Origin: Acidobacteriota bacterium
GTDB lineage: Bacteria; Acidobacteriota; UBA890; WLXD01
Direction of reading: 5' to 3'
Length of the DNA: 64,000 nt
Assembly: GCA_965248695.1 (NCBI GenBank)
Contig: CBDFKD010000002.1
Coordinates: 1,152,001 to 1,216,000 of the forward strand
In this document: one piece after another, positions 5,234 to 44,090 of the stretch
Position numbering within the stretch: position 1 is the first letter of the stretch
Layout: the number at the start of each line of letters is the position of its first letter
The notes under the pieces: generated by a model
What the model was told of the DNA's origin: nothing
Databases searched by the model: none
Seen by the model: the letters and a program-made list of their open reading frames with translations, nothing else
Position numbers and translations under genes: made by a program

Positions 5234-5307
5234 CGCGCCCCGGAGGACTCGAACCTCCAACCTCCTGGTCCGTAGCCAGACGCTCTGTCCAATTGAGCTA
5301 GGGGCGC
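5234..5307 (-). tRNA. tRNA-Arg(ACG)
   Basis: GCGCCCC/GGGGCGC acceptor stem, D-arm TAGCTCAATTGGACAGAGC, anticodon arm TCTGG-CTACGGA-CCAGG, T-loop GGTTCGAGTCC; followed by CCT, so full CCA is not encoded. Confidence 0.97.
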
Positions 5308-41228: not shown

Positions 41229-42705
41229 GGCGCGAGACCACCATGATCGTGGTCAGCGAGCAGAGCACGGTCAGCGTCTTGAAGGGGAACCGCACGGCAC
41301 CGCCGGCATCGATCATCGGGTAGGGCAGCAGGGCGGGAATACCGAGGATCGGCTCACCGCCACCGAAGCGCATCACGAACGAGACCGCGAAGCCGGCCAT
41401 CGACCCGATACGGTTGGCGCGCCGATCGTAGAGCGCCAGCACGAGCTGCGGGAAGAGGATGCAGTAGACGAAGTCGCTCGACAGGTACCAGAGCGCGTAG
41501 ACGCTCTGTACCTGCAGCGCCAGAATCGTGGCCGATACACCGACGAGCACGATGGTTCGTCGGATCACGCGGGTCAGCTGATCGGCGGACACGTCCGGTT
41601 TCCACAGCGGTCGGTAGACGTTCCACGCGCCCATGGATGACGCTGACAGAATCGACGAGTCGACCGATGACATGACCGCGGCGGCGAGCGCGCCGAGCCC
41701 CAGCGCGGCGATCCAAGGATCGGTCAGGTAACGCAGCACCCAGGGGAGGATCAGCGCCGGTTCTGGCGTCGGGACTCCCATGGCCTCCCAGTCGACACCG
41801 GCTCCGACGATGCCGATCAACACTGCGGGCATTGCCGCGATGACGCATACCGCCGCGCCGATGAGCGAGGCCGTCCGCGCGGCGCTCGCGTCGCGCATCG
41901 CCAGCACGCGCTGGAAATACGCGTGCCACGGCAGGCCGCCGAAGATCAGCATGAGCATCGAGTCCCACCAGCTCCAGTAGGTGTTCCCCCATGCCGGGTC
42001 GCGCCAGGATCCCCACTTCGGCATGAAGGCCGCCGCGGAGCCCATGCGCTCGACGTACGCGGCCCATGCCGCGTCGATGCCGCCCAGTGCGCCAGCGGCA
42101 ATCGGCGCCACAAGCCAGAGGCCTCCGACGAGCAGCAGGAGCTGTACGACGTCGGTCAACGCCACCGCCCACAGACCGCCGATCAAGGTGTAGCCCACGG
42201 CGACGGCCGCCGACAGCAGGATGGACACGGTGAAGTCGAGGTCGAGTACGGTGCCGAAAGTAGTGCCGAGCGCCGTCAGGATGGCGGCGCTCCAGAAGAC
42301 CTCACCGGTCAATGCCGGGAGGTACAGGAGTGCCGCCATGCGCCGCCCGAACCGCTGGTGCAGTGGGTCGAGCATGGTGGTGAACCCGTGGCGCCGCATG
42401 ATGGGGGCGAAGAACAGACCACCGACCACCATGCTGAGCGAATAACCCCATGGCGCCTGCACCCATACGAGCCCGTTGGAGTAGGCAGCCTCAGCCGAAC
42501 CGTTGATATAGCCGCCGCCCACCCATGTCGCCGACATGGTCAAGACGCCCACCCAGATCGGCAGCGCCCGCCCGGCTAGCAGCATGTCCTCAGCGGTGCC
42601 GCACGACTTGCGCCGGGCAGCGTAGATGCCGATGGCGAAGATCACTGCATAGAGCACGGCCATCACCAGCACCGCGCCCCACTGGACGTTCGAAGGCTCA
42701 GACAT
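41164..42705 (-). CDS. Sodium:solute symporter similar to the high-affinity choline transporter SLC5A7/CHT1
   Basis: ATWVGGGYING.AE, WVQAPWGYSLS, TMLDP, GGLPW.AYFQRVL and SSVDSSILSASS motifs. Confidence 0.85.
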   Translation of the reverse strand: MSEPSNVQWGAVLVMAVLYAVIFAIGIYAARRKSCGTAEDMLLAGRALPIWVGVLTMSATWVGGGYINGSAEAAYSNGLVWVQAPWGYSLSMVVGGLFFAPIMRRHGFTTMLDPLHQRFGRRMAALLYLPALTGEVFWSAAILTALGTTFGTVLDLDFTVSILLSAAVAVGYTLIGGLWAVALTDVVQLLLLVGGLWLVAPIAAGALGGIDAAWAAYVERMGSAAAFMPKWGSWRDPAWGNTYWSWWDSMLMLIFGGLPWHAYFQRVLAMRDASAARTASLIGAAVCVIAAMPAVLIGIVGAGVDWEAMGVPTPEPALILPWVLRYLTDPWIAALGLGALAAAVMSSVDSSILSASSMGAWNVYRPLWKPDVSADQLTRVIRRTIVLVGVSATILALQVQSVYALWYLSSDFVYCILFPQLVLALYDRRANRIGSMAGFAVSFVMRFGGGEPILGIPALLPYPMIDAGGAVRFPFKTLTVLCSLTTIMVVSRLTRDRAAPRTLGVQRSGSDTH

Positions 42706-42864
42706 CGATCGGTAGTGAACAACGGATCGCATGCTACGATCCAGCCAGGCGCTCGTGATTACGGGTGCCACGGGCGGTTGCGGCATTAACTCGTGCCGCC
42801 CGAATACAGGTTTCTCACGGTTTCCGGAGGGAAGCGCGTGACGGTTCGGTCGAGGCTATGAGCG

Positions 42865-43075
42865 GCCTATTGAGCCGGGCGGTAATGGGAGCCGCCGATA
42901 CGGACACGCTCGAAAAGGAGGTGATCTAGTGTTGTCTGATAAACACGGCTTAACGGAGGTGGCAGCCCCGTAAGGGAGATCCTTCCTTTCGAGCTGAAGG
43001 CTCCAGCGTTGTTGGCGCTGTTGAGGGATCCGTCCCCGATGCGGGGAATCCCACTGCCACCGACCATGAGCTACA
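42865..43075 (+). ncRNA. Candidate structured ncRNA or leader containing a 14-codon sORF
   Basis: Nested helices TTGAGCCG/CGGCTTAA, GGCGGT/GCCGCC, GGTGGCAG/CTGCCACC and GATCCTTC/GAGGGATC plus several small hairpins; SD AAGGAGGTGATC; sORF at 42929-42973. Confidence 0.55.
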
Positions 43076-43076
43076 A

Positions 43077-43117
43077 ACGAGGGCCCCGGCGCCGAACGGC
43101 GTCGGGGCCCTTGTCTT
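43077..43117 (+). terminator. Strong GC hairpin, putative intrinsic terminator
   Basis: ACGAGGGCCCCGGCGCC-GAAC-GGCGTCGGGGCCCTTGT followed by CTT. Confidence 0.7.
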
Positions 43118-43175
43118 GATAGCCTCGGGGTGCCCGCACGAATCGTACGCACAGATTCTCGAGTCTGGCCAACAC

Positions 43176-44090
43176 ATGCAGCGTGCCGTCGTCATTGCCA
43201 ACCCCATTGCCGGCCAGGGGGCTCCGATGCGGGCTGCGGAAGAGGCCCGCGGCCATCTCGAGCACCACGGCTGGGAGGTCGGGGTTCGACCGACGAGCGC
43301 GACCGGGCATGCGACCGAGATCGTCCAGCAGTGCCTGCACTCCACGGAGCTGATCGTCGTCGTCGGTGGCGACGGCACCGTACGCGAGGCGGTCGCCGGG
43401 CTCGACGGCGCGTCGGTGCCGGTCGGATTCGTACCGATGGGCAACGCCAACGTTCTGGCGCGTGAGCTACGGATCCCGCGGAACCCGCAGCACTCCATCC
43501 CTTTGCTCACCGCCGGGGAGCCACTGGCGATCGATGTGGGCCGCGTCGAGGGCATGATCTTTCTGAGCATGGTCAGCGTCGGCTACGACGGCTGGACTAT
43601 CGCCGGTGTCGATTGGCTGCGCGGCACCCGCGTCGGGGGGTGGCTGTACCGACACGGCGGCTCGAGCTGCCTCTACGTGCTCGCCGGATTGCCGCCGCTT
43701 CTGCTAAGAACGGTTCCCAACCGGGTTCGCATCGAGGCCGATGGCCAACTCCTGACACGGCGTTACCCCTCGGCCGTTTTCAGCAACGCCGAAGCCTACG
43801 GGCTGGGGTGGGCAATGACTCCTGGAGCCAACATCCGCGATGGTCGTCTCGACCACCAGGCCAACCGACGCTCCGCACCGTGGTTCGTTCTTTGGACCAT
43901 CGCCGCCTCCATCCTGCACCGCCGTGTGCCGGGGGTAGTGGCGGAATACGGCGGCGCGGCGGGGTACCGCGTCACCGCTGATCGGCCGTTCCGATGGCAG
44001 GTCGACGGTGACCCCATGCCGCCCCGTCGCGAGCTGCATATCGAGCTATTGCCGCGCCACGCACGGATTGTCGCGCCGCCGCCCGACTAG
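43176..44090 (+). CDS. Diacylglycerol kinase-family lipid kinase (YegS/DgkB-like)
   Basis: NPIAG, GGDGT, PMGNANVLA and QVDGD motifs. Confidence 0.88.
   Translation: MQRAVVIANPIAGQGAPMRAAEEARGHLEHHGWEVGVRPTSATGHATEIVQQCLHSTELIVVVGGDGTVREAVAGLDGASVPVGFVPMGNANVLARELRIPRNPQHSIPLLTAGEPLAIDVGRVEGMIFLSMVSVGYDGWTIAGVDWLRGTRVGGWLYRHGGSSCLYVLAGLPPLLLRTVPNRVRIEADGQLLTRRYPSAVFSNAEAYGLGWAMTPGANIRDGRLDHQANRRSAPWFVLWTIAASILHRRVPGVVAEYGGAAGYRVTADRPFRWQVDGDPMPPRRELHIELLPRHARIVAPPPD

Follow-up and report, generated by a model that had tools for sequence, protein, structure and literature searches.

A stand-alone, pseudoknotted RNA gene of Acidobacteriota with a putative 14-codon reading frame behind a ribosome-binding site complementary to the 16S rRNA tail

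Transfer-messenger RNA (tmRNA) has a tRNA-like domain and works without a Shine-Dalgarno (SD) sequence or start codon. Small RNAs (sRNAs) with a dual function and a small open reading frame (ORF), such as RNAIII/hld, SgrS/SgrT and SR1/SR1P, have a narrow distribution and act by base-pairing with their targets. Ms_IGR-5 (RF02471) is an sRNA of actinobacteria that was initially discovered in Mycobacterium smegmatis, and the name IGR-5 was reportedly given by Li et al. 2013. The accessible part of one preprint describes it as validated, uncharacterised and NAD-capped (bioRxiv 10.1101/2021.12.14.472595), that of another report shows it by RNA-seq in Streptomyces lividans (PMC8079986), and IGR-5 is stated in such accessible text to be longer than first reported. 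The accessible parts of the Ms_IGR-5 literature contained nothing on a reading frame, a 16S complement or pseudoknots. CC2171 (RF01867) is an alphaproteobacterial sRNA of unknown function, a stand-alone transcript with Northern blots in Methylorubrum according to the available text of bioRxiv 10.1101/2022.01.24.477521. The locus described here lies in a 64,000-nt stretch of an Acidobacteriota genome (the window; positions 1,152,001 to 1,216,000 of contig CBDFKD010000002.1). We read it, with a probability of roughly 60%, as a stand-alone gene, present in a single copy, whose product is a structured RNA which contains a working mini-mRNA and alternates between closed and ribosome-loaded states. 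A sequence-only reading had flagged 42865-43117 as a structured RNA and possible attenuator between two genes; its observation was largely right, but its boundaries were too narrow and its attenuator reading was wrong.

The earlier description of the RNA as unrecognised held for Rfam at curated thresholds, where no family, riboswitches included, matched the locus; a weak chain of similarity, however, led to Ms_IGR-5. Even with E values of up to 10 allowed, the Ms_IGR-5 model matched nothing in 42700-43200, and a search of the whole genome with it gave two chance-level matches elsewhere (E 2.2 and 4.2). It aligned end to end with a divergent relative of the RNA, L092, at 24.4 bits (E 0.0008), below its gathering cut-off of 45 bits; further comparison was made via the Rfam consensus. 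The Ms_IGR-5 consensus has several features of the window RNA: GGAAGGAGGUGGUCC close to the 5' end, a frame whose last part reads ...GUGAGGUGGCUGCCCGCUAG, further downstream a CCCC-GCAGUCACC that can pair with GGUGGCUGC in the manner of helix P7 described below, and a terminal hairpin. The two thus have in common a long SD, a short frame ending GAGGUGGC...UAG, a distal strand against GGUGGC and the hairpin. In contrast, the Ms_IGR-5 model begins at the SD, without the P1-P3 domain and pseudoknot PK2 of the window RNA, and is actinobacterial, whereas the record titles of the relatives found here named Acidobacteriota classes and other phyla, with none from Actinobacteria. As judged from the consensus, the shared architecture is a likeness of design, not membership.

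The permissive mode of Rfam produced eight weak matches in 42700-43200, of which the best was CC2171 (25.8 bits, E 0.0014, cut-off 75); in a relative, too, CC2171 gave the best weak match, at 22.3 bits. CC2171 resembles the window RNA in having GAAAGGAGGUGAUCC, one base and a start codon, in its terminal hairpin and in being a stand-alone transcript. However, its transcript starts ~12 nt before the SD (8/8 loci read, 2 of them above the Rfam cut-off), its frames have 22-30 codons (MSH.../MSS...) and it is without the 5' domain, the GAGGUGGC element and the P7-type pairing. The window RNA stayed below the 75-bit score and showed neither the short leader nor an MSH/MSS frame of 22-30 codons. In addition, all eight CC2171 members and weak matches (L195-L202) carried GAAAGGAGGTG[AG]TCC, one base, GTG or ATG, and a 22-30-codon frame ending before the terminator, and from these sequences the CC2171 'sRNA' looks like a small-protein message. 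With tmRNA, the window RNA shares several pseudoknots around a frame of 10 to 30 codons and the character of a housekeeping-type single-copy RNA, but the ordinary tmRNA of the genome lies elsewhere and Rfam found none here. The dual-function sRNAs are likewise stand-alone transcripts that combine a structured RNA with a message for a very small peptide. Unlike them, the window RNA spans several phyla, has its frame inside pseudoknots and showed no target: in a search of the genome with the conserved 3' element only, the best trans sites had 2-3 mismatches in 17, all in coding-looking sequence.

The plus strand of the locus folded at -134.3 kcal/mol with a z of -6.5 against shuffles, compared with a z of -3.8 for the minus strand. 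The 5' boundary first placed at 42865 had to be moved: a likely promoter and conserved structure were found further upstream, and in the alignment of relatives the sequence conservation continued 5' of it. The features of the gene are listed in Table 1. Transcription probably starts near 42743-42747, as placed by the extended -10. Most other lineages have TTGACA-17-nnAnnT, with an A-rich -10, ~35-45 nt before P2, whereas in the window's order the extended -10 is kept and an extra 5' hairpin is added. The terminal hairpin was real, its stem being 91.5% paired with covariation in 11/12 pairs across 80 homologues.

Table 1. Features of the RNA gene and their positions in the window
Feature	Position	Strand	Observation
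Folded RNA gene with mini-ORF	~42745-43119	+	~370 nt; extends beyond flagged 42865-43117
Candidate promoter, extended -10 TGCTACGAT	42732-42740	+	TGCTA[CG]NNT kept here in relatives of family and order
P0, lineage-specific 5' hairpin (GGGCGG...CCGCCC)	42772-42801	+	Compensatory changes by eye: GGGCAG/CTGCCC, GGCAAC/GTTGCC
P1 hairpin (TCACG...CGTGA)	42815-42841	+	Outer 5 pairs 77.8% paired, 4/5 changed on both sides
P2 (CGGTTC/GAGCCG) enclosing P2a	42842-42877	+	P2 97.5% paired, 5/6 pairs covary; P2a 87.9%
PK2 5' strand (P2a loop TGAGCG)	42859-42864	+
P3 hairpin (GGGCGGT/GCCGCC)	42878-42896	+	97.9% paired, 6/6 pairs covary
Putative PK1 5' strand (P3 loop TGGG)	42886-42889	+	3' partner CCCA beside P7 3' strand
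PK2 3' strand (CGCTCG)	42907-42912	+	1 nt before 16S-complementary stretch
Extended Shine-Dalgarno AAAGGAGGTGATCTAG	42914-42929	+	Complement of last 16 nt of own 16S rRNA, one G.U
Mini-ORF (MLSDKHGLTEVAAP, then stop)	42929-42973	+	GTG, 13 sense codons, TAA
P7 5' strand GGTGGCAG	42958-42965	+	Within codons 10-13
P6 hairpin, stop codon in loop (CCCC GTAA GGG)	42966-42976	+	72.4% paired, poorly aligned stretch
Anti-SD strand AGATCCTTCCTTTCGAGC	42977-42994	+	Can pair with 42908-42927
P8 (CAGCG TTGTTGG CGCTG)	43004-43020	+	Same place in homologues; columns too shifted to count
P9 (CCCCG ATG CGGGG)	43034-43046	+	Same place in homologues; columns too shifted to count
Conserved 3' element, CCCA + CTGCCACC	43050-43061	+	PK1 and P7 3' strands, adjacent
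Intrinsic terminator	43077-43119	+	GC-rich stem 43081-43110, extendable to 17 bp, then TTGTCTTGA

Three marine metatranscriptome runs from different studies contained contigs of 248, 253 and 309 nt which were 88-92% alike. The contigs were confined to the RNA (~42764-43073) with the flanks uncovered, whereas a DNA run covered everything, and one of them extended back to ~42764, i.e. upstream of P0. This hints, if weakly, that close relatives make the RNA as a discrete and abundant transcript. No evidence of habitat came from metatranscriptome runs with small word shares. The DNA run X1 is near-identical to the window and may be its source. In this run (record 2), a contig of a second organism carried a homologue of the RNA with flanks that match L026-type sequence.

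The 3' end of the genome's own 16S rRNA reads ...CTGGATCACCTCCTTT, and the SD of the locus covers its whole single-stranded tail. The complement had been given as 12 nt, AAGGAGGTGATC at 42915-42926, and was found there, although its actual length is 16 nt (Table 1). Complements of 13 nt were limited in the 5.9-Mb genome to the rRNA gene itself and only one other; the other 13-nt exact complement of the 16S tail (GGAGGTGATCCAG) lies at G000:C2:1942713 on the minus strand, outside the window. All 111 homologues read had GGAGGTG[AG]T[CT][CT]. A second SD-like GGAGG at 42955-42959 overlaps the 5' strand of P7 and sits 8 nt before the last sense codon, while the first sits 7 nt before GUG; the second may hold the terminating ribosome.

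The mini-ORF was present as first read, from the GTG at 42929 to its end at 42973. Among homologues found by covariance models, 33/33 kept GTG, 13-14 further sense codons, and TAA (11) or TAG (22). Of the 92 unique frames among the 111 sequences, 86 had 14 codons and 6 had 15, with insertions at different places but always in threes. In a second phylum, where only model-found sequences were used, 19/20 frames had 13, 14 or 15 codons; the starts were GTG (16) and TTG (4), and the stops among those 19 were TAG (16), TGA (2) and TAA (1). For 20 independent pairs with no more than 2 nt of difference, frame 0 had 13 synonymous and 12 non-synonymous changes, where 24% synonymous was expected (p 0.002), against 4/21 and 1/24 in control frames 1 and 2 of the same pairs. 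By these comparisons, the reading frame behaves as translated and appears to be under frame-keeping selection. Overall, the comparative coding signals together with the gene's own promoter and terminator fit a translated small ORF in a stand-alone structured transcript, as far as sequence comparison reaches. As a side observation, TGA made up 56% of the stops in 2436 long frames of the genome vs 0/33 in the model-found set and 2/20 in the second phylum; this bias is a lead only, because the sequences share ancestry and the choice of stop may depend on the loop around it.

The coding signatures of the frame, the strong promoters and the maximal SD would also be expected of a small-peptide gene, in which the function resides in the 14-residue peptide and the role of the RNA is confined to keeping the message stable and adjusting its translation. 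In addition, CC2171, the best weak Rfam match, has its 22-30-codon frames behind the same full-length SD, so that such 'sRNAs' can be small-protein messages. We nevertheless regard a gene of this kind as unlikely, since residues 2-9 are nearly free and differ almost completely between lineages, the third positions of the C-terminal EVA(S/A) codons are invariant and covary with a distant RNA strand, and the synonymous excess is limited to very close pairs. Moreover, ~300 nt of covarying pseudoknotted RNA far exceeds known small-protein messages. The earlier proposals of a small-peptide mRNA and of a ribosome-binding or translation-sensing RNA were each half right: the coding signatures are there, but the fold is conserved well beyond the needs of a 14-codon mRNA.

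An RNA that is not translated but binds 30S subunits or the 3' tail of 16S rRNA, as a decoy, a sponge or an aid to assembly, and whose frame is a by-product of structural spacing, would explain why the complement spans the whole single-stranded 16S tail and is longer than ordinary ribosome sites. It would also agree with the variation inside the complement (A->G, C->U), which keeps the pairing with the 16S tail through G.U, and with the GAGGTGGCG codons, which are fixed at the RNA level. A decoy, however, needs neither a stop codon nor a fixed frame, yet the length changed in threes (six 15-codon frames; 13, 14 and 15 codons), the start varied only between GUG and UUG, the stop varied only among stop codons, and close pairs showed the frame-specific synonymous excess. 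A decoy is for these reasons a very doubtful explanation, and the structured RNA with a working mini-mRNA remains our preferred reading.

Base pairs were counted in an alignment (A5) of 80 full-length homologues, from which 10 of the 90 unique full-length homologues had been dropped, 4 because they carry insertions >75 nt and 6 because their 3' domain differs. The partners paired in 91.4% of cells vs 36-50% when they were slid by 1-3 columns, and 39/54 pairs had changes on both sides. There were 311 cells changed on both sides vs 83 ± 12 in shuffles, and the observed values were reached by 0/500 shuffles. P1, P2, P3, the terminator and two long-range helices were supported by covariation. For PK2, 93.3% of cells were paired and 5/6 pairs were changed on both sides (e.g. 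GC:66, AU:12). P7 (GGTGGCAG/CTGCCACC), the strands of which lie 90 nt apart, was 98.1% paired with compensatory GC->AU and UA->GC changes, and it also covaried in the second phylum (GGTGGTGT/ACACCACC, GGTGACG/CGTCACC and GGTGGTA/TACCACC). Compensatory stems of P6 were seen by eye (CCTC/GAGG, TCG/CGA).

Two helices of the sequence-only reading were recovered in this alignment, namely the GGCGGT/GCCGCC helix (P3) and the GGTGGCAG/CTGCCACC helix proposed to close a second domain (P7). The helix proposed to close the first domain (42870-77/42946-53) and the CGGACA/TGTCTG helix were not, as their 62.2% pairing compared with 61.3% in shuffles and was reached by 74/500 shuffles; GAGCCG pairs instead with CGGTTC at 42842-47, in P2. 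A GTGTT/AACAC hairpin within the frame was weak and not general (58.5% paired), and a kissing contact of the frame (CACGG) with the P8 loop (CCGUG) was at the level of its control (60.1% vs 59.9%). Generally, the P1-P3 5' domain clamps both ends of the stretch from SD through start and frame to stop, with PK2 before the SD and with P7 and the putative PK1 over codons 10-13, so that PK2, P7 and the putative PK1 close 'SD - GUG - 14 codons - stop' into a loop.

A complement of the full SD core followed the stop hairpin in 60/83 unique homologues, vs 13.1 expected from shuffles and 2/83 in a control window, and the anti-SD earlier noticed after the stop is in this respect well founded. The anti-SD pairing in the window reaches up to 18 bp with two bulges. 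Its lower stem (GCTCGAAA/TTTCGAGC) covaries in the window's own family and competes with PK2 for 42908-42912. In the proposed mechanism, the closed compact state would have the SD paired and P7 formed. A 30S subunit, with its longer complement, would displace the shorter bulged anti-SD pairing to give the open state, and the translating ribosome would next melt P7 and P6, the stop hairpin. A ribosome at the stop codon would cover the anti-SD, which begins 4 nt downstream, and the SD would stay free for the next round; through displacement, melting and covering, the RNA would flip between the closed and the ribosome-loaded open form.

Several observations weigh against this reading. Simple consensus scans of 42400-43500 called no promoter-like and no terminator-like site, the terminator scan failing because the tail is short of T. 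The metatranscriptome contigs, which make up the evidence of expression, are assembled and come from relatives, show no strand or ends and may derive from DNA. The steps of switching and displacement are inferred. The alternative partner of the anti-SD, a downstream GGAGG-like element (GAGGGATC in the window) on which the sequence-only reading had built its switch, performed no better than chance across homologues (mean best run 5.56 vs 5.17 in shuffles; 1/90 sequences exceeded 95% of its own shuffles). Of the 111 sequences, 66 came from a pattern which itself demanded GTG and TAR, so that only the model-found sets are unbiased. In one relative (L189) the stop (TAG) is out of frame through a 1-nt deletion, giving a 20-codon frame, which is either a sequencing error or a real exception. 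The codon signal fades when 32 pairs with up to 8 differences are used (frame 0 21/54 vs 19/48 and 15/55). RNA pairing, and not the peptide, holds the third positions of GAG GTG GC[GA] constant, because these codons form one strand of P7. Finally, the three G-C pairs of PK1 were invariant in the 80 sequences, and covariation neither supports nor refutes them.

The RNA was present in a single copy in the genome by BLAST, with matches in 12/61 relatives. A covariance model of the RNA core (R1, built from 12 sequences) gave exactly one match in 23/26 genomes of the order, including 12/12 genomes that are >=90% complete; the class consists of the same 26 genomes. R1 matched 22/151 sampled genomes of the phylum, and a shorter model of the translation module (R2) matched 24/151 with one match each and none in the other 127. 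A pattern scan with one genome per species found at least 115 stretches. Among the matches listed, most were labelled Acidobacteriota (Vicinamibacteria, Thermoanaerobaculia and others) and a few Krumholzibacteriia, Latescibacteria or Fibrobacteraceae. R1 matched 66/80 pattern loci given to it, and of the 14 missed, 2 look like chance and 12 belong to a divergent type; 35 pattern loci (L139-L173) were outside the R1 scoring. The divergent type (12 loci) was labelled Nitrospirota, Myxococcota, Spirochaetales, Alpha- or Deltaproteobacteria, labels of metagenome-assembled genomes which may be unreliable. It retains the SD, the frame, the GAGGTGGCG element, the stop and the CCCAG-CGCCACC strand, was single-copy in 5/5 genomes tested, occurred in 31/121 sampled genomes of the phylum concerned, and matched no Rfam family at its cut-off. 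These RNAs appear to form a multi-phylum group, linked by a weak chain of similarity to its only catalogued relative, the uncharacterised actinobacterial sRNA Ms_IGR-5.

In the window, the RNA gene lies between a sodium:solute symporter family gene on the minus strand, which starts at 42705, and a DAGK_cat/YegS-type kinase gene on the plus strand, which begins ~60 nt past the terminator. The short distance to the kinase gene, and the presence of a kinase-family gene downstream in the 10/10 loci examined in the window's own family, would suit a cis-acting leader or attenuator of this diacylglycerol-kinase-family gene, or of the divergent symporter. However, the kinase-family gene was downstream only within that family. 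The downstream genes in other lineages coded for an M20 peptidase, histidine kinase, PALP enzyme, DUF2911, LMW phosphatase, DUF7133 or DUF4159 protein, and in some loci they were DHDPS, PepSY or SDR genes in convergent orientation; further neighbours included GreA, sulfatase and MFS transporter genes. No neighbour family occurred in more than 20 of 130 oriented loci, and the largest clusters were in part artefacts produced by the antisense strand of the RNA. The conserved regulated gene that a leader-peptide attenuator or riboswitch would have immediately downstream was absent, with the exception of a purU-linked sub-clade in two orientations. The RNA stayed conserved and single-copy while its neighbours changed. 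It is thus a stand-alone gene of its own, with its own promoter and terminator, and the attenuator between transporter and lipid kinase that the sequence-only reading had proposed is extremely improbable.

In the divergent sub-clade, a gene like purU (10-formyl-tetrahydrofolate hydrolase) always adjoins the RNA. It was found at 13/164 loci in 12 distinct genomes (L083, L087, L092, L102, L109, L111, L126, L137, L142, L177, L178 and L191, with L175 as a repeat of L092). The gene was co-directional and just downstream in 5 distinct cases (6 rows), and divergent on the opposite strand ~250-615 nt upstream in 7. In M. smegmatis, IGR-5 adjoins MSMEG_5795 according to the accessible text of bioRxiv 10.1101/2021.12.14.472595, and MSMEG_5795, a class-IV enzyme gene, is the orthologue of the folate/D-amino-acid enzyme Rv0812. 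In addition, at L050 and L131, both of one acidobacterial lineage, the RNA is directly preceded on its own strand by a class-IV aminotransferase gene whose end lies ~190-210 nt from the mini-ORF; a third class-IV aminotransferase match lies >5 kb from the RNA. The adjacency of purU, MSMEG_5795 and the aminotransferase weakly suggests a tie to formyl-folate and hence to formylation of the initiator tRNA. It is conceivable, if quite unlikely, that the RNA reports initiation capacity (a mature 16S tail, formylated initiator tRNA on a weak GUG, and termination mostly at UAG/UAA) and feeds back on formyl-folate metabolism or ribosome supply; the hints for this are genetic.

Few large, pseudoknotted RNAs without an assigned function are known from bacteria, and the RNA described here adds a new and larger form to a family about which little is known. 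The searchable literature held no description of a ribosome-binding site matching the entire free 16S 3' tail, nor of a fixed-length frame locked in pseudoknots and conserved across several phyla. If the RNA is indeed opened and closed by the ribosome, it would represent a novel readout of translation status in the cell and would provide a function for the mycobacterial and streptomycete sRNA Ms_IGR-5, which has been validated but not characterised. Cultivable hosts with relatives of the RNA exist, and the question is therefore directly testable.

Other known RNAs were compared with the locus. The models of tmRNA, RNase P RNA and 6S RNA (RF00023, RF00010 and RF00013) gave no match at the locus; the genome's own RNase P RNA and tmRNA were located elsewhere, and the fold at the locus differs from the long irregular hairpin of 6S RNA. 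A search of the whole genome for 6S RNA, with E values of up to 0.001 allowed, came out empty, though RNase P RNA and tmRNA were found. Acido-1 and Acido-Lenti-1 (RF01686 and RF01687; named in the accessible part of PMC2864571) had no match in the permissive Rfam scan. Cow-rumen-1 reached 16.4 bits in the window and was absent from the relative L060. A weak match to the c-di-GMP-II riboswitch at 42765-42834 on the minus strand (18.6 bits vs a cut-off of 53.5, E 0.32) overlaps the 5' part of the RNA in antisense orientation and probably arose by chance. Finally, the sole Rfam match in the window at curated thresholds was a tRNA gene at 5234-5307 on the minus strand.

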